This document shows, piece after piece, positions 13,753 through 56,362 of a stretch of DNA of 64,000 nt. The notes beneath the pieces were generated by a model that did not search any database, was not told the origin of the DNA, and was given only the letters and a program-made list of their open reading frames with translations. Every line of letters starts with the position of its first letter. Position 1 is the first letter of the stretch. Source of the stretch: a virus (lineage: Duplodnaviria > Caudoviricetes). Both the position numbers and the translations under genes were made by a program. The stretch lies in IMG/VR virus record IMGVR_UViG_3300008116_000002; one strand, written 5' to 3'.

Positions 13753-14916
13753 ATGTCCAAGACGCATTATACTGAGCAACAACGTCAAGAATTGGTTAGC
13801 AAACTAATTGCTACTCATGGTAAAATTCTTGATAAAAAAGACATTCTAAATTTTTGTGAAAATAATAACCTGCCGAATCCGCATTTTTTGATTAGTCGTC
13901 GAGACATTAAGGTGGGGCGTTCATATGATTTGGGAAGATTTGATTCTTTTATTCCTGAAACTGCAGCTGCGTTGACAGCGCAAGTAGTTCCTCTGAAGCA
14001 ACCTAAAATGCATATGGTAGAAGATAGCACAGTTCCGGTCAAAGATTCTACTTATGTTCCTTTTGGTTTCTTTAAGCAACTCGAGCAAATTATCAGCTCA
14101 AAGACTTTCTATCCTGTTTTTATTACTGGTCTATCAGGCAACGGCAAGACTACTATGGTAGAACAGGTTGCTGCTAAGCTTAAACGAGAATGTATTCGAG
14201 TAAATATTAGTATTGAAACAGATGAAGACGATCTAATCGGCGGCAATACTCTGCAGGATGGTAATGTAATCTATCGTGAAGGCCCCGTTATTATGGCAAT
14301 GCGTCGGGGTGCAGTTTTGCTTATTGATGAAATTGATCGTGGTTCCAATAAGCTAATGTGTATGCAAAGTATTCTTGAGGGTAAGCCTTTGTTCAATAAA
14401 AAGACAGGCGAAGTAATTTATCCTGCTCCCGGATTTACTGTTATTGCAACTGCGAACACCAAAGGTCGGGGCACAGAAGATGGTCGATTTATTGCAGCAC
14501 AGATTCTAGATGAGGCTTTTCTAGAAAGATTCCCTATCACTGTTGAACAAGAGTATCCTTCGACTACTGTTGAGAAAAAAATTCTTCGTAACAAGATGAA
14601 TTTTTATGGTAAGCTAGATGAAGAGTTTCTTGAGATGTTAGTCAATTGGGCGGATATTATTCGTAAGACTTTCCAAGAAGGTGGTGTGGATGAGATTATT
14701 AGTACTCGTCGATTGGTAAATATTGCACAGGCGTATTCGATTTTTAATAATCGAGAAGATGCAATTAAGTATTGTATTAATCGATTTGACGATGATACCA
14801 AAACAGCATTTATGGATTTGTATGAAAAGATGTCCACTCCTGTAGAAGCAACCAGTGCTTTGCCGGAACAGGACGTAGCACAAGTAACAAATTTTGATGA
14901 TGATATTCCATTTTAA
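13753..14916 (+). CDS. MoxR/CobS-like AAA+ ATPase
   Basis: Walker A GLSGNGKT, Walker B LLIDEID, TANT, AFLERF. Confidence 0.9.
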   Translation: MSKTHYTEQQRQELVSKLIATHGKILDKKDILNFCENNNLPNPHFLISRRDIKVGRSYDLGRFDSFIPETAAALTAQVVPLKQPKMHMVEDSTVPVKDSTYVPFGFFKQLEQIISSKTFYPVFITGLSGNGKTTMVEQVAAKLKRECIRVNISIETDEDDLIGGNTLQDGNVIYREGPVIMAMRRGAVLLIDEIDRGSNKLMCMQSILEGKPLFNKKTGEVIYPAPGFTVIATANTKGRGTEDGRFIAAQILDEAFLERFPITVEQEYPSTTVEKKILRNKMNFYGKLDEEFLEMLVNWADIIRKTFQEGGVDEIISTRRLVNIAQAYSIFNNREDAIKYCINRFDDDTKTAFMDLYEKMSTPVEATSALPEQDVAQVTNFDDDIPF

Positions 14917-29488: not shown

Positions 29489-30430
29489 ATGGAATATCGT
29501 GAAGATGAATTTCTCTGGGTTGAAAAGTTTCGTCCCAGAAAATTAGATGATTGTATTCTCCCACCTAGCCAGAAGAAAGTTTTTCAGGAAATGCTGGCAA
29601 AGGGGGAGATACAAAATATGCTTTTGTGTGGCGGAGCTGGCATGGGCAAGACTACTGTTGCAAGAGCATTGTGTGAAGAACTACAAACTGATTACATTGT
29701 CATTAATGGTTCGGAAGAATCTGGTATTGATGTTCTTCGTACAAAAATTAAACAGTTTGCGTCGGCGGTTTCTTTTAGCGGCAAGCCAAAGGTTGTAATT
29801 TTAGATGAGGCAGACTATCTAAATCCAAATTCTACACAACCTGCTCTTAGAGCTTTTATTGAAGAATTTTCTTCAAATTGCAGATTTATTCTTACTTGTA
29901 ACTTTAAGAATAGAATCATTCCTCCCCTACATTCGAGAACTGCGGTTATTGAATTTAAATTACCTAAGACAGAAAAACCTAAAATTGCTGCAGCATTTTT
30001 TAAACGAGTAAATGAAATACTTGAGATTGAAAAGGTAGAAGCAGATGGAAAGGTAATTGCAAAGGTAATTGAAAAGCATTTCCCTGATTATCGCAGAATT
30101 TTAAATGAACTTCAGAGATACAGCGGTTCAGGTAAAATCGATGAGGGCATCTTTACTAGTCTAGGTGAAAGCAATATGCAAGAGCTTATTGCAACACTAA
30201 AGGATAAAGACTGGAAGAAGATGCGAACCTGGGTGGTCAATAATATTGATAATGACCCACAGACAATTTTTAGAAAAATGTATGATACTTTATGCGATGA
30301 AGTAGTTCAGATTCCTCAATTAGTATTATTACTTGCCGACTATCAGTATAAGTCTGCTTTCTGTGCAGACCAAGAAATCAATCTTGTTGCTTGCCTTACA
30401 GAAATTATGGCAGCAGTGGAGTTTAAATGA
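29489..30430 (+). CDS. gp44: Clamp loader large subunit
   Basis: WVEKFRP, GGAGMGKT, ILDEAD, HSR. Confidence 0.96.
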   Translation: MEYREDEFLWVEKFRPRKLDDCILPPSQKKVFQEMLAKGEIQNMLLCGGAGMGKTTVARALCEELQTDYIVINGSEESGIDVLRTKIKQFASAVSFSGKPKVVILDEADYLNPNSTQPALRAFIEEFSSNCRFILTCNFKNRIIPPLHSRTAVIEFKLPKTEKPKIAAAFFKRVNEILEIEKVEADGKVIAKVIEKHFPDYRRILNELQRYSGSGKIDEGIFTSLGESNMQELIATLKDKDWKKMRTWVVNNIDNDPQTIFRKMYDTLCDEVVQIPQLVLLLADYQYKSAFCADQEINLVACLTEIMAAVEFK

Positions 30431-31428
30431 ATAAAATATTAGTAACCGGCGGTGCGGGATTTATTGCACATCATATCATAGAAGATCTATTAGTAAATAC
30501 TAACTGTAAAATTGTTACTGTAGATAGTTTAGATTTTTCTGGTAATCTAAATCGTTTATCTGATATGCTAAAGAATAGACAAGATTTGTCTAATAGAATT
30601 GAATATCTGTATCACGATATACGAGCAGAAATTAATCCTACTTTGGCCAAACAAATAGGGGATGTTGATTATATACTGCACCTCGCAGCGGGCAGTCATG
30701 TTGATAGAAGTATTAAAGATCCTCTAAGTTTCGTTTATACGAATGTAGTTGGAACTTGTAATATTCTTAACTTTGCGAGAACTCAAAAAAATCTAAAAAG
30801 ATTTTTATATTTTAGCACAGATGAAATTTTTGGCCCAGCACTAAAAGACACAAATTTTTCAGAATATTCTAGATACAATTCTAGCAATCCTTATAGTGCA
30901 ACTAAGGCGGGCGGGGAAGAACTTGCGGTAGCATTTCATAACACTTATAATATGCCAGTGTATATTACGCATTGTATGAATGTATTTGGTGAGAGGCAGC
31001 AAGCAGGCGCATTTATTCCGTTATGCATAAGAAAAATATTAAACAACGAAAAACTTACTATACATTCAGATGTAACTTTAACTAAATCTCCAATTAGGCA
31101 TTACATATATGTAAAAGAGGTTGCGAGTGCTATTAGATTTCTTTTAGAAAACAATTTTACCAGTAATGATAGTTTAATAAAGGTTCCGAAGTTTAATATT
31201 ACGGGCAGAGACGAAATTCAAATACTTGAATTGTCTAAAACCATTGCTAAATTATTAAATAAAGAATTGCAGTATGAAATGACTTATACCCAAAGACCAG
31301 GTGGAGATATGGGATATTCTTTATCAGGCAATCTTTTAAAATCTCTTGGGTGGGAAGCCAAAAGTAATTTTTCAGATCATATTGAAAAAGTTGTAAATTG
31401 GTATGTGGATAATAAAGCCTGGCTATGA
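30427..31428 (+). CDS. dTDP-glucose 4,6-dehydratase-like extended SDR
   Basis: TGGAGFI, AAGSHVDRSI, STDEIFG, YSATK. Confidence 0.85.
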   Translation: MNKILVTGGAGFIAHHIIEDLLVNTNCKIVTVDSLDFSGNLNRLSDMLKNRQDLSNRIEYLYHDIRAEINPTLAKQIGDVDYILHLAAGSHVDRSIKDPLSFVYTNVVGTCNILNFARTQKNLKRFLYFSTDEIFGPALKDTNFSEYSRYNSSNPYSATKAGGEELAVAFHNTYNMPVYITHCMNVFGERQQAGAFIPLCIRKILNNEKLTIHSDVTLTKSPIRHYIYVKEVASAIRFLLENNFTSNDSLIKVPKFNITGRDEIQILELSKTIAKLLNKELQYEMTYTQRPGGDMGYSLSGNLLKSLGWEAKSNFSDHIEKVVNWYVDNKAWL

Positions 31429-31628
31429 GAAAGAAAACTATGAATGATTTCGAAGTACATGAACTTGGAACAACGAAAGAAATTCAATTAAGCAGAGCAC
31501 TTGCTCGTGCTATTCATGATAATGAAGATCGTATTCGTTCCTATAATGTTATGCCAGTTGATGTTTGGAACGCTTATGTCGCACTTAGAAAACATTACGA
31601 CTGGCAAATTGAAAATGAAAAAATGTGA
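31425..31628 (+). CDS. Hypothetical protein
   Basis: Intact ORF overlapping the upstream stop. Confidence 0.55.
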   Translation: MRKKTMNDFEVHELGTTKEIQLSRALARAIHDNEDRIRSYNVMPVDVWNAYVALRKHYDWQIENEKM

Positions 31629-31645
31629 ACGAGATAGTATATTAC

Positions 31646-31653
31646 TATAAATA
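31646..31653 (+). promoter_or_regulatory. T4-type late promoter
   Basis: Exact TATAAATA 6 nt before ORF 31659. Confidence 0.5.
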
Positions 31654-31658
31654 CTGAT

Positions 31659-31892
31659 ATGATTGAGACTCCGTTCCCCTTTCCTATAAGTTCTACTCAA
31701 GATGTCTATAGAACAAGAGCTGTGCCTGCATCTGACGGTACTCACATAAGACACACCGTTATTACTGAAACTAGTTATCCTGAAGGTAACAGTACTAGAA
31801 AAGTTGAGACTTATTCCGTTACAGTATACGATGCTACAGGTAGATTAAATTCTTATCTGTTTGGTTATGATAATGTGAACAGATTAGTATAG
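31659..31892 (+). CDS. Hypothetical protein
   Basis: Intact ORF filling the gap before gp62. Confidence 0.5.
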   Translation: MIETPFPFPISSTQDVYRTRAVPASDGTHIRHTVITETSYPEGNSTRKVETYSVTVYDATGRLNSYLFGYDNVNRLV

Positions 31893-31902
31893 TGAGAATA
31901 TT

Positions 31903-32340
31903 ATGAGTTTATTTGGTGAACCGACAGCGCCCGTTGTCGAAGAAACATACAAGTCCCCAGCAATTACCCCGTTTGAGTTTATCAACGCTATTCATCATAG
32001 TAAAGAGAATCTAATTGTTGACGAATGGTCCGAGAAACAATATAATCCCTATATTATAAACAAGGGTCTTTCGTATGGACATGATACTGTTATTCCTGCG
32101 AATGAGATGAATTCTAGACCTCATTTGGACAAAACCCTTCAATTTCATTTCCTTATAAATATTATTAGGCCTAAAAAAAGATTCAATAAATGGATCAAGG
32201 CCGAGAAGGTCGATGATTTGGAAACAGTAAAAGAATACTATGGCTACAGCACAGAGAAGGCCAAACAAATTCTTCCGCTTCTGAATGAATCGATTATAGA
32301 TGAAATGAGAAAAAGAATAACAAAGGGCGGCAAGAAATGA
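31903..32340 (+). CDS. gp62: Clamp loader small subunit
   Basis: YNPYIINKGLS, ANEMN, KKRFNKW, YYGYS..KA. Confidence 0.93.
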   Translation: MSLFGEPTAPVVEETYKSPAITPFEFINAIHHSKENLIVDEWSEKQYNPYIINKGLSYGHDTVIPANEMNSRPHLDKTLQFHFLINIIRPKKRFNKWIKAEKVDDLETVKEYYGYSTEKAKQILPLLNESIIDEMRKRITKGGKK

Positions 32341-32771
32341 ATACAGATATTATTTCCATTAATTACCCGGGGTATAATCCCCTGGAAGTGATTCTTAAAG
32401 AACCCGACGATTTTCTAAAGGTAAGAGAGACCTTGACAAGAATCGGCGTTGCTTCGAGAAAAGATAAAACCCTATATCAGTCGTGCCACATTTTACATAA
32501 GCAGGGAAGATACTTTATTGTACACTTTAAAGAGCTATTTGCTTTAGATGGTAAAGTCGCAGATTTAACTGATAATGATTTACAGCGTAGAAATACTATT
32601 GCCAAGTTGCTGGTAGACTGGGGTTTGATAGAAATTAATAATTCGCACCTATTTACAGATTATGCTCCCCTTTCCCAGATCAAAGTCATTTCCCATAAGG
32701 AAAAGGATGATTGGAAATTGGAAACAAAATATAATATTGGTAAGAAAAAATTAAGTGGTGCATATAAATAA
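32337..32771 (+). CDS. regA: Translational repressor RegA
   Basis: DDFLKVRETLTRIG, LYQSCHILHKQGRYFIVHFKELF. Confidence 0.97.
   Translation: MNTDIISINYPGYNPLEVILKEPDDFLKVRETLTRIGVASRKDKTLYQSCHILHKQGRYFIVHFKELFALDGKVADLTDNDLQRRNTIAKLLVDWGLIEINNSHLFTDYAPLSQIKVISHKEKDDWKLETKYNIGKKKLSGAYK
32763..32770 (+). promoter_or_regulatory. T4-type late promoter upstream of pqqA
   Basis: Exact TATAAATA overlapping the regA stop. Confidence 0.6.
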
Positions 32772-32869
32772 TTTGTAGTTCGATAATGATCTCAAATTGG
32801 ACCTTGCTACAGCATCTCCAATGAACTGATCGTAACAGCAGTACTTTTTAATCTTTCAAGGAGACTATT

Positions 32870-32941
32870 ATGTGGACTAAACCTACAGCAAAAGATATGC
32901 GTTTTGGATTTGAAATCACAATGTATATCGCAAATAGATAA
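32870..32941 (+). CDS. pqqA: PQQ precursor peptide, 23 aa (not in ORF track)
   Basis: MWTKPTAKDMRFGFEITMYIANR with the ExxxY core; SD AAGGAG at 32858-63. Confidence 0.9.
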   Translation: MWTKPTAKDMRFGFEITMYIANR

Positions 32942-33064
32942 TCATCCCTTCGGGATGGGACTGGTTGGCAGTTCCAGTTAAAACTGCCATCTAAAGAAAG
33001 GACTATGCCGAATGGATAGTTTAATTTCGCAGTTTGTTTTTGGTACCCCAGCATGGGGAAATAA

Positions 33065-33089
33065 CTCGCTTAATAAGGAGACCGATATG
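33065..33089 (+). promoter_or_regulatory. ROSE-like RNA thermometer hairpin
   Basis: CTCGCT-TAATA-AGGAG: the U(U/C)GCU motif pairs with the SD through a bulged G. Confidence 0.55.
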
Positions 33090-33308
33090 TTGTATTACGC
33101 TAATATGGCCATTGATGCCATCCAGTCAGGAAAAACCACGTGGCTTCAAACTTTCGTCAAGGAAGAACAAGTACGCAAACCTCTTCAACAGTTTGTAGAT
33201 GCACAGACAGCCTACACAAAACAGATTACCAAGACATGGTATGATGTAACAGGTGCTGCTGCAAAAGCAACAGTTGATAAAGTATTTTCTAAGGAGGTGA
33301 AAGAATGA
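33087..33308 (+). CDS. Phasin-like helical protein
   Basis: Start reassigned to ATG 33087 after AGGAG; AIDAIQSGK...FVDAQTAYTKQ pattern. Confidence 0.45.
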   Translation: MLYYANMAIDAIQSGKTTWLQTFVKEEQVRKPLQQFVDAQTAYTKQITKTWYDVTGAAAKATVDKVFSKEVKE

Positions 33309-33796
33309 ACTGGCTGCTATCCAATGTACCAAAAGACTTTGACAAATTTTTTGTAGGCTTTGACGAACAGTTCAATCGCCTGGCAAAAATGCATGATGAT
33401 ATCACAAAGAACATTCCTAATTATCCTCCATACAATATCAAAAAAACAGGTGACAATACATACCTGATTGAAGTTGCTGTCGCAGGTTTTGCGAAGCAAG
33501 ATATTGAGATTGAGTTAGTTGACGGCAAGATGGTCGTTACTGGCAAAACTCATAGTGATGATGATAGCAGTTTCTTATTCAGAGGAATTGCAAATAGAGC
33601 ATTTACTCGCACTTTTGCTTTAGATGATCAAATCGAAGTTAAAGATGCAGAAATGTTTAATGGTATGTTAAAGATTTTCTTGGAGCGTATTATTCCCGAG
33701 CATAAGAAGCCTAAGAAAATTGATGTTAAAGATACTAGTGAAACTTCTAAACCTAGCAAAAAGTCTAAAGAACTTTTACTAGAAGAAGACAAGTAA
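33305..33796 (+). CDS. Small heat shock protein Hsp20 (IbpA-like)
   Basis: NYPPYNI, AVAGF, RGIANRAFTRTF, NGML. Confidence 0.95.
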   Translation: MNWLLSNVPKDFDKFFVGFDEQFNRLAKMHDDITKNIPNYPPYNIKKTGDNTYLIEVAVAGFAKQDIEIELVDGKMVVTGKTHSDDDSSFLFRGIANRAFTRTFALDDQIEVKDAEMFNGMLKIFLERIIPEHKKPKKIDVKDTSETSKPSKKSKELLLEEDK

Positions 33797-37516: not shown

Positions 37517-40006
37517 ATGAAATTCTACACTAGCGTCAATCAGTATGGTAACAATATTTTGGTTAGGGGCGTGAACAATGGCAAAATGGTTCAGGAAAGA
37601 ATCCCCTTTAAACCGACGCTTTTTGTCAAATCCAGAGAGGAAAGTAAGTACAAATCCCTATACGGGGAAAATCTTCAATCTATAAATTTTGAGAATATTA
37701 ACGACGCCAAGGATTATATTTCTCAGTATAAAGATGTAGAAAACTTTCCGATCTTCGGTAATACCAATTTTGCGTATCAGTATATAACTGAGAACTTTTC
37801 TGATAACATAGAATTTGATATTTCTCAGATTAAAATTTGGTCCTTGGATATTGAAACATCTGCGGACAATGGATTCCCCGATGTATCAAGCGCACAGGAA
37901 AAGGTTCTTCTAATTACAATTCAAGATTACGAAACGAAGAAACTTACCACATTCGGTCTAAATGATTACGCCCCTAAAACTGAAAAGCATACCTATATTG
38001 GATGTAAAGATGAGATAACACTTCTCACTAAATTTTTAGATTTTATTTCCAGTGATTACCCTCACATCATAACAGGTTGGAACGTAGAATTTTTTGATAT
38101 CCCGTACCTATGTAATCGCATTCGAAGAATTCTTGGCGAGGATACACTTAGAACTTTTTCTCCCTGGAGAAATGTCAAGGAAAAAAACATCATCAAATTG
38201 AAGAAAGAAAATATTTCTTTTGATCTTCTCGGCATCGCTATTCTAGATTATTTAGATTTGTACAAGAAGTTTACTTATACAAATCAGGAATCCTACAAAC
38301 TAGATCACATCGCAAAAGTAGAACTAGGTAAAGAAAAATTATCCTATGAAGGAACCTTTACAGACTTTTATAAAAATGATTGGGAAAGGTTTGTTGACTA
38401 TAACATTCGAGATGTGGAACTTGTAGATGAACTAGAAGAAAAGATGAGACTAATTGAACTCATCTTAACTATGGCTTATGATGCAAAGTGTAATTATATT
38501 GATATCTTTTCTGCAGTAAGAACTTGGGATTGTATTCTTTATAATGAACTATGGAAAAAGAATATTGTAGTCCATCAAAGAGAGAATAGATCTGGCAGAC
38601 AAATTGCGGGTGCTTATGTCAAGGAACCTAAACCTGGTAAGTACAACTGGGTAGTTTCTTTTGATGCTACTAGTCTGTATCCAAGTATTATTATGCAGTA
38701 TAATATGTCTCCGGAAACTCTAATTACAGACTATCCATATCTGTATGATGTTAGTATATCTAAACTTCTGGAGAGTAAAGAAGATCTATCAGAACTTGAA
38801 GATAGAGATTATTGTATGACATCAAATGGTAGATGTTTCTCCAGAGATAAGCAAGGTGTATTTCCTGAAATTGTTCAAAAGTTATTTGATGATAGAAAGA
38901 AATATAAGAAACTGATGTTGGATGCTCAGAGTCAGTATGAAGAAACTAAAAATAAGCATTGGCTAAAAGAGATATCTAAGTATAATAACTTTCAGATGGC
39001 TAGAAAAATTCAAATGAATTCTTTGTTCGGAGCCATGGCAAATGAATACTTTAGATTTTATGACGACCACATTGCAGAAGGTATTACTTTAACAGGGCAG
39101 TATATTATTCAAAGTGTAGGTAAAGCCTTAGATGATTACCTGAATAAGGTATGCGGCACTAAAGACTTTCCTTATTCTTTTTATTCCGATACTGATTCCT
39201 GTTATATCACATTAGATCCCCTGGTTGAAAAATTCTACAAGAATCAATCCAAGGAAAAGATTGTTGGTATTCTCGACAAGATTTGTGAAACTAAGATTCA
39301 GGAAGTTCTAAATAAAGCATGCGATGGTATTGCATCCTACACAAATGCCTTTGATAAAAAAATTGTTTTTAAACGAGAGGCAATCGCAGAAACGGGTGTT
39401 TGGGTAGCTAAGAAAAGATATGCTTTGAACGTCTCGAATAATGAAGGGGTTCAATATAAAGAGCCCAAGTTGAAGGTGATGGGATTAGAAATCGTCAGAT
39501 CATCTACACCTGAGCCTGTAAGAGATGCACTTAGAGCGGCAGTTAAACTTGCACTAACCTCTGACGAGGAAACGCTTCAGAATTATATTAGAGACTTTGA
39601 ATCGGAATACAGAAAAATTAATCCAGAGGAGATATCCTTCCCTAGGGGAGTAAACGGATTAGATAAATATTCAGATAAAGCAAATATATATAAGCAAGCA
39701 ACTCCAATGCATGTCCGAGGAGCATTGCTTTATAATTTTTACTTGGAAAAATATGATCTAAGTAAAAAGTATCAGAGAATTAAAGAGGGTGACAAAATTA
39801 AGTTCATCTATCTCAAGGAACCTAATACTATAGGTGAGAACTGTATCGCATTTAACACTGTTATACCTCCAGAAATGGATCTTAGAAAATTTGCAGACTA
39901 TGATACAATGTTTGCGAAATCCTTTCTAGAACCTTTAACTACAATATTGGATGGTATTGGTTGGACAGCTAAACCGCAAGCTACATTAGAAGGATTATTC
40001 GGATGA
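37517..40006 (+). CDS. gp43: Family B DNA polymerase
   Basis: Exo DIET; SFDATSLYPSII; KIQMNSLFG; YSDTDS. Confidence 0.98.
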   Translation: MKFYTSVNQYGNNILVRGVNNGKMVQERIPFKPTLFVKSREESKYKSLYGENLQSINFENINDAKDYISQYKDVENFPIFGNTNFAYQYITENFSDNIEFDISQIKIWSLDIETSADNGFPDVSSAQEKVLLITIQDYETKKLTTFGLNDYAPKTEKHTYIGCKDEITLLTKFLDFISSDYPHIITGWNVEFFDIPYLCNRIRRILGEDTLRTFSPWRNVKEKNIIKLKKENISFDLLGIAILDYLDLYKKFTYTNQESYKLDHIAKVELGKEKLSYEGTFTDFYKNDWERFVDYNIRDVELVDELEEKMRLIELILTMAYDAKCNYIDIFSAVRTWDCILYNELWKKNIVVHQRENRSGRQIAGAYVKEPKPGKYNWVVSFDATSLYPSIIMQYNMSPETLITDYPYLYDVSISKLLESKEDLSELEDRDYCMTSNGRCFSRDKQGVFPEIVQKLFDDRKKYKKLMLDAQSQYEETKNKHWLKEISKYNNFQMARKIQMNSLFGAMANEYFRFYDDHIAEGITLTGQYIIQSVGKALDDYLNKVCGTKDFPYSFYSDTDSCYITLDPLVEKFYKNQSKEKIVGILDKICETKIQEVLNKACDGIASYTNAFDKKIVFKREAIAETGVWVAKKRYALNVSNNEGVQYKEPKLKVMGLEIVRSSTPEPVRDALRAAVKLALTSDEETLQNYIRDFESEYRKINPEEISFPRGVNGLDKYSDKANIYKQATPMHVRGALLYNFYLEKYDLSKKYQRIKEGDKIKFIYLKEPNTIGENCIAFNTVIPPEMDLRKFADYDTMFAKSFLEPLTTILDGIGWTAKPQATLEGLFG

Positions 40007-56101: not shown

Positions 56102-56362
56102 ATGCTAGGTATTATAGAAAATGATCGTGTAGATAAAGGTAGATATACCTCGCAAGAAGCAGCAAATAAAGTAGGTGGCATTTATAATTTGGTTTTAATT
56201 GCAAGTGCCAGAGCACGAGAACTAAAAAAACATCAATCCGCAGATACTGCAAGAACTATGATTGTTGCGGCACTCGCAGATGTTGAAGATGGTAAGGTAG
56301 GTGCAGATTATCTGCGTAGGCATCAAAAAGATATTGACAAACAATATCGCAAAAGCAAATGA
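56102..56362 (+). CDS. rpoZ: RNA polymerase omega subunit homolog
   Basis: YNLVLIASARAREL and ALADVEDGKVG match the RpoZ conserved helices. Confidence 0.7.
   Translation: MLGIIENDRVDKGRYTSQEAANKVGGIYNLVLIASARARELKKHQSADTARTMIVAALADVEDGKVGADYLRRHQKDIDKQYRKSK

Follow-up and report, generated by a model that had tools for sequence, protein, structure and literature searches.

Does a reading frame of 23 codons in a T4-like phage encode a genuine precursor of the redox cofactor PQQ, and what might a phage gain from it? PQQ is built from the cross-linked glutamate and tyrosine (spacing E-x3-Y) of PqqA, a small precursor peptide of typically ~20–40 residues, and its synthesis uses up PqqA one to one, a peptide for each PQQ. 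PQQ dehydrogenases pass electrons from methanol, ethanol and sugars into the respiration of abundant lake and coastal bacteria. For the 64-kb stretch of phage DNA analyzed here (the window), a preliminary description had proposed an unannotated pqqA under a late promoter and had hinted at a methylotrophic host; its statement that PqqA is consumed stoichiometrically agrees with established biochemistry.

A genuine PqqA-family gene between T4 core genes

The ORF and its Shine-Dalgarno sequence were found in the place originally proposed (Table 1), and the PqqA pattern seen in its 23-aa translation, MWTKPTAKDMRFGFEITMYIANR, was borne out by comparison with the Pfam model, the check that the preliminary description had named. 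Against PF08042 the peptide scores 40.2 bits (E 3e-10; gathering cut-off 21.1 bits) with the whole profile covered, and against the NCBIfam equivalog model TIGR02107 39.3 bits (cut-off 20 bits), in both cases about twice the curated cut-off. After correction for the ~900 ORFs of at least 20 aa expected per 64 kb, a number scaled from 57 in 4 kb, the E-value for PF08042 is still ~3e-7. The Glu-x3-Tyr pair claimed for the peptide is present as E15 and Y19 within the motif FGFEITMY. Nearly all viral copies of pqqA have a GGAG- or AGGA-type site at a spacing to the start as in the window. These observations confirm a genuine PqqA-family peptide gene, equipped with a ribosome-binding site, in a phage.

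Table 1 Features surrounding pqqA in the window, with nucleotide positions
Feature	Position	Strand	Remarks
gp44 clamp loader	29489-30430		
gp62	31903-32340		
regA (T4 translational repressor)	32337-32771	+	Upstream neighbor of pqqA; PF01818, 159 bits
TATAAT, sigma-70-type -10-like	32730-32735	+	In the 3' end of regA; encodes Tyr-Asn of the conserved KYNIG motif
TATAAATA, T4-type late-promoter-like motif	32763-32770	+	99 nt 5' of pqqA; overlaps the last codons and stop of regA
Shine-Dalgarno AAGGAG	32858-32863	+	6 nt 5' of the pqqA ATG
pqqA	32870-32941	+	ATG at 32870; 23 codons; stop TAA at 32939-32941
Glu15 codon of pqqA	32912-32914	+	GAA
Tyr19 codon of pqqA	32924-32926	+	TAT
Hairpin CATCCC-TTCG-GGGATG	32943-32958	+	2 nt 3' of the pqqA stop; UUCG loop, no U-tract
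Small ORF before hsp20	33012-33308	+	Family not recognized
hsp20 small heat-shock gene	33305-33796	+	Downstream boundary of the slot; PF00011, 57.7 bits
gp43 DNA polymerase	37517-40006		At most 49% identity to cyanomyovirus polymerases

The phage is T4-like with ~35% GC, and besides the genes of Table 1 the window encodes UvsX, a gp41-like helicase and 25 tRNAs. T4 core genes flank pqqA on both sides and its GC3 is phage-like, which places it within a bona fide phage genome. The exact 72-nt gene was not found in IMG/VR; its 2.4-kb surroundings are present at full word share in 14 DNA runs from freshwater or lakes, and contigs from six freshwater metatranscriptome runs contain them too. Relative to L120, the IMG/VR contig most closely related to it, the window holds ~1.5 kb extra between gp44 and gp62 (30427–31892; the gap in L120 is only ~280 nt), comprising a NAD-dependent epimerase/dehydratase gene (GDP-mannose dehydratase-like) and two small ORFs without known family.

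Viral pqqA is conserved and keeps a fixed position in T4-like relatives

A tblastn search of GenBank phages recovered intact pqqA in the Methylophilales phages Venkman, Melnitz (four records), MEP301 and MEP401/402, in Methylophilaceae phage P19250A and in a spring-water podovirus, and every cultured Methylophilaceae phage among the matches carries a stand-alone copy. These copies are covered by no feature, or only by a hypothetical CDS on the opposite strand, so that the gene was rightly called unannotated as far as the GenBank phage copies are concerned. Being below gene-caller thresholds, pqqA is missing from phage annotations and from surveys of auxiliary genes, and antisense ORFs are sometimes called where it lies. 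A 68-aa antisense ORF of the window (32848–33054, minus strand) overlaps pqqA and its hairpin and would be favored by gene callers; the Melnitz and Manatee Spring GenBank records have such "hypothetical proteins" of the opposite strand annotated across the pqqA ORF. Two matches in "Acinetobacter phage MD-2021a" were set aside as host DNA, since they lie within a bacterial ppk-pqqABCDE stretch; the 144-kb record CAKLQF020000010.1 under that name (L007) appears to be host chromosome deposited as a phage.

A generic PqqA codon pattern matched at least 120 IMG/VR contigs, and the matches listed are all clean ORFs of 23–25 codons behind a ribosome-binding site. When the N-terminal part alone was fixed and residues 15–23 were left free, 16 contigs were added, giving at least 136, and 120 of the 120 matches listed for this second pattern keep Glu-x3-Tyr and have their stop no more than 22 codons from the Trp. 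Over 116 distinct viral sequences pN/pS comes to 0.19; with several residues fixed by the search pattern, this value errs on the low side. At R11 these sequences draw on all six Arg codons, and positions outside the search constraint (F12, F14, N22, K/R23) are likewise kept. As far as sequence comparison goes, this demonstrates that pqqA is held under protein-level constraint across many phage lineages. Stand-alone copies also occur in three jumbo-sized IMG/VR records (L036, L055 and L063, of 356, 166 and 148 kb; 96%, 48% and 43% complete by CheckV), and L055 and L063 have the IANR core, as in the window.

The layout gp44-gp62-regA-pqqA-(small ORF)-hsp20 is common to the window and 13 T4-like IMG/VR contigs, whose RegA proteins are 62–88% identical to that of the window and which keep hsp20 too. 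L120 is the closest syntenic relative (RegA 88%, gp44 91%, Hsp20 ~70% identical). A RegA tree was discarded as evidence on core types, having a single well-supported branch (the window and L120); the scatter of the IANR type over two of its groups is apparent only and not reliable. The window gene has a GC3 of 0.23, whereas bacterial copies average 0.58, and its nearest nucleotide relatives are viral, which together argue for a long-resident phage gene rather than a recent capture.

These data bear on the idea that pqqA is a neutral passenger or recombination leftover with no role in infection, in temperate relatives an attachment-site piece within host pqqA. Orphan pqqA copies dispersed over Methylophilaceae chromosomes do offer recombination targets, and recombinases lie near pqqA in several small methylophages. 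A leftover does not sit well, however, with a full-length ORF that has its own ribosome-binding site in lytic T4-like phages, occupies a fixed slot in 13 diverged contigs, keeps its peptide through heavy synonymous change and is AT-adapted, all of which mark pqqA as an old resident under selection. A passenger is thus largely refuted by the conservation data, and we regard it as barely credible.

The gene stands alone and would need host enzymes

As the preliminary description had stated, no pqqB-E is found in the window: tblastn with pqqB, C, D and E returned nothing, and two bacterial PQQ alcohol dehydrogenases used as queries found no homologue there. pqqB-E are also absent near pqqA in 126 viral loci, and neither these loci nor the window hold a homologue of a PQQ dehydrogenase, methanol dehydrogenase included. 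The search was extended to five viral records in full, namely the complete Melnitz genome, a 356-kb phage at 96% completeness, a 66-kb phage at 100% completeness and two large fragments; none of them yielded PqqC, a PqqE match above the cut-off or a PQQ alcohol dehydrogenase.

Among bacterial loci with the window's core, pqqB adjoins pqqA in 104 of 120. The window pqqA is not encoded beside pqqBCDE, and nor are 15 of the 16 Methylophilaceae copies examined, so that this adjacency is typical of PqqA and not obligatory. Because the window gene stands alone, any function that it has needs the enzymes of a host.

Peptide type and a possible host outside the Methylophilaceae

The C-terminal 15-residue core of the window peptide, DMRFGFEITMYIANR, is identical to that of PqqA from Comamonadaceae, Limnobacter and Rhodocyclaceae. 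Limnohabitans, Rhodoferax, Polaromonas, Hydrogenophaga, Limnobacter, Thauera and further Burkholderiales commonly have this core, and it occurs in none of the 121 genomes sampled from the inferred Methylophilaceae family. The best matches over the whole peptide, with 20 of 22 residues identical, come from Limnohabitans sp. DM1, a Rhodoferax MAG and an Acidovorax MAG. The peptide, 23 aa long, begins with MWTKP like the phage and Methylophilaceae copies and has a core typical of other Burkholderiales. Candidate hosts with this core type carry a pqq operon, and of five lake genomes with the core, four have a PQQ alcohol dehydrogenase above cut-off and the fifth a truncated match.

Of 401 Burkholderiales genomes sampled, just 4 have the type that all cultured methylophages carry, EMRFGFEVTMYVMNK. 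The four come from a single family, which we infer to be Methylophilaceae; each has 3–6 pqqA copies, hexulose-phosphate synthase and XoxF/Mxa-type dehydrogenases, and two of them are 1.3 Mb in size. The commonest viral PqqA peptides are identical to Methylophilaceae copies, 15 of the 16 corresponding host loci being orphan copies, and a minor VCNK subtype is shared by 14 viral contigs and 7 of the 121 Methylophilaceae genomes. Phage subtypes therefore tend to mirror host subtypes. Five Methylophilaceae genomes of 1.3–1.4 Mb (G425, G454, G470, G484 and G496) have two VCNK pqqA copies at conserved chromosomal positions, and VCNK could be a marker tying the 14 viral contigs to a small-genome subgroup of this family. 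Host inference from peptide type is nevertheless imperfect, as Melnitz infects OM43 and yet has an IMTR tail unlike the usual Methylophilaceae type. A further caution is that comparable phages from Lake Baikal were assigned to Methylophilaceae hosts.

Two other host clues were rejected. Phage GC is uninformative, since all pqqA-bearing viral contigs have 30–47% GC, whichever their peptide type. A homologue of the RNA-polymerase omega subunit (56102–56362) has one match, in Limnohabitans sp. DM1 (30% identity, E 0.004), and none in the inferred Methylophilaceae genomes, and is too diverged to be used.

Judged by its core type, the phage may have a Burkholderiales host that is not a member of the Methylophilaceae, for example Limnohabitans or Rhodoferax. 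On balance we hold a non-Methylophilaceae member of the Burkholderiales to be somewhat probable, a member of the Methylophilaceae to be a real but lesser prospect, and a host of any other kind improbable. The absence of the core from the 121 genomes leaves the hint at a methylotrophic host unsupported, and the core type argues against presuming such a host. A bolder proposal is that the core of the pqqA in the regA-hsp20 slot is exchanged according to host type and so marks the host, the window phage infecting a non-methylotrophic or facultative freshwater Comamonadaceae-like bacterium. We advance this only tentatively and consider it rather unlikely to hold; were it true, viral manipulation of PQQ would reach beyond phages of methylotrophs to general PQQ-dependent oxidation of alcohols and sugars in lake bacterioplankton.

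A probable role in precursor supply

The stand-alone pqqA of this lytic T4-like freshwater phage is probably an auxiliary metabolic gene whose product would feed host PqqD, PqqE, PqqB and PqqC and keep the host's dehydrogenases loaded. During infection the 23-aa peptide would be translated and the host chaperone PqqD would bind it by its N-terminal part, whereupon the host radical-SAM enzyme PqqE would cross-link Glu15 to Tyr19, and a host protease, PqqB and PqqC would complete PQQ. Host transcription is expected to drop after infection; with one PqqA spent per PQQ, precursor supplied by the phage would then keep the periplasmic PQQ alcohol and sugar dehydrogenases, and respiration with them, going until lysis. 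A phage that brings the consumable precursor alone would show where the pathway is expected to run short after shut-off, and its 72 nt would be an unusually cheap means of steering host energy metabolism.

Methylophilaceae keep 3–12 pqqA copies per genome with one enzyme set (PMC4109929), and orphan copies are the most highly expressed as PQQ output rises (PMC9851590). These extra precursor genes, which serve a single enzyme set, are a bacterial precedent for raised precursor dosage. Like the window pqqA, the orphan copies are stand-alone 23-aa genes with an MWT[KT]P start, away from pqqBCDE, and they differ from it at 7 of 22 positions, in the core.

A different outcome at the host enzymes is conceivable, in which the phage peptide acts as a decoy or inhibitor, occupying PqqD or PqqE without useful PQQ and shutting down or redirecting host synthesis. 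Nothing specific speaks for this: the conserved N-terminal part would suit any PqqD ligand, and the mixture of an MWTKP start with a core of other Burkholderiales would be compatible with it. A decoy could afford to lose the reactive pair, however, whereas Glu and Tyr, like the intervening and following residues, are kept in all 120 listed viral copies in which the core was free to vary, and the viral peptides found most often are identical to host copies of functional type; we therefore give a decoy little credence. The phage might instead use the peptide or PQQ for itself, in redox protection, as cofactor of a phage enzyme or as a signal. The nearby stress gene hsp20, which may share a transcript with pqqA, and the intervening ORF of no recognized function would fit such a use, but no PQQ-binding enzyme was found in the window, the 126 viral loci or the five large viral records, and PQQ dehydrogenases are present in candidate hosts, which leaves it very improbable. 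The invariant reactive pair, the conserved slot and the lack of a phage quinoprotein in these searches make a passenger, a decoy and a phage-specific use all unlikely, and precursor supply to the host pathway is the reading that we prefer.

Comparison with known viral and bacterial PqqA

The novelty implied by the preliminary description does not hold up, for PqqA in T4-like lake phages has been in print since 2020. The Lake Baikal T4-like phage populations VP_266 and VP_139 carry PqqA, were assigned to Methylophilaceae hosts and are said to encode methanol dehydrogenase (Coutinho et al. 2020, Microbiome 8:163, PMC7678222). The window phage resembles them, in a comparison made by description, in being freshwater, T4-like and ~35% GC with a stand-alone PqqA that is read as a PQQ-boosting auxiliary gene, and departs from them in lacking a PQQ dehydrogenase homologue in the window and in having a core type from outside the Methylophilaceae. 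The principle and proposed role of viral PqqA were thus published in 2020, and the window is one more example; what it adds is the regA-hsp20 slot of a T4-like lineage, a core type from outside the Methylophilaceae and an occurrence in RNA libraries.

At 13753–14916 the window encodes an AAA+ ATPase of the CbbQ/NorQ (MoxR-like) type. Such genes are sometimes named by pipelines after methanol dehydrogenase regulation, and this may be relevant to published calls of a viral methanol dehydrogenase.

Melnitz, Venkman, MEP301, MEP401/402 and P19250A share with the window an intact stand-alone pqqA of 23–24 codons behind a ribosome-binding site. Identity of the window peptide to those of cultured Methylophilaceae phages is 65–73%. 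Cultured methylophage cores end in VMNK, VLNK or IMTR, their hosts are known methylotrophs and the genome contexts differ, pqqA of Melnitz lying beside tRNA-Leu and gp5 and that of the window beside regA. In the papers that describe the cultured methylophages, pqqA goes unmentioned. The Comamonadaceae, Limnobacter and Rhodocyclaceae genes that encode the same C-terminal 15 residues are of 24 aa (M-x-W...), GC-rich and mostly joined to pqqB, whereas the window peptide has 23 aa and an AT-adapted gene.

Expression signals and RNA-library contigs

For the late promoter attributed to pqqA, the window offers only a conserved candidate motif. This TATAAATA is kept at the end of regA in L120 and lies in a non-coding spacer in L048. 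Its count in the window is that expected by chance (10 vs 11.0 ± 3.6), and RNA-library contigs start upstream of it. The placement of its copies is non-random: 6 of 9 on the plus strand lie outside long ORFs (p ~5e-4), and most plus-strand copies sit just 5' of ORFs. As a weak hint, the TATAAT within regA is a possible alternative start region for a pqqA transcript. The contigs in question begin at 32737 (X15) and 32745 (X17), positions that as contig ends cannot prove a start site, and in X15 the depth rises from 6.1 over regA to 26.9 starting at 32737, a figure from contigs that cannot rank genes. The syntenic relatives L084, L100 and L097 have no TATAAATA before pqqA; TTGCTT-spacer-TATAAT-like sites, of sigma-70 or T4 middle-promoter type, are found there instead, so that the timing of pqqA may vary between relatives.

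Contigs 100% identical to the window span pqqA in four freshwater metatranscriptome runs from four studies. RNA-library contigs of this kind show neither strand, level nor timing and may include DNA carry-over, and on this basis expression of the window pqqA is plausible.

The core of the hairpin behind pqqA, TCGGGATGGGA, is kept in L120, L048 and L073, and the hairpin may stabilize the 3' end of a short pqqA RNA or belong to the leader of the operon that follows. Rfam has no match within 32600–33400, and the predicted fold of a 324-nt region is unremarkable (z = -2.6). A second hairpin, GGCAGTT...AACTGCC, follows 3' of pqqA (both within 32943–33030) and is common to the window and L073. In L073 its stem reads GGTAGGT...AACTACC, a compensatory change relative to the window that hints at conserved RNA structure in the stretch from pqqA to the small-ORF/hsp20 operon.
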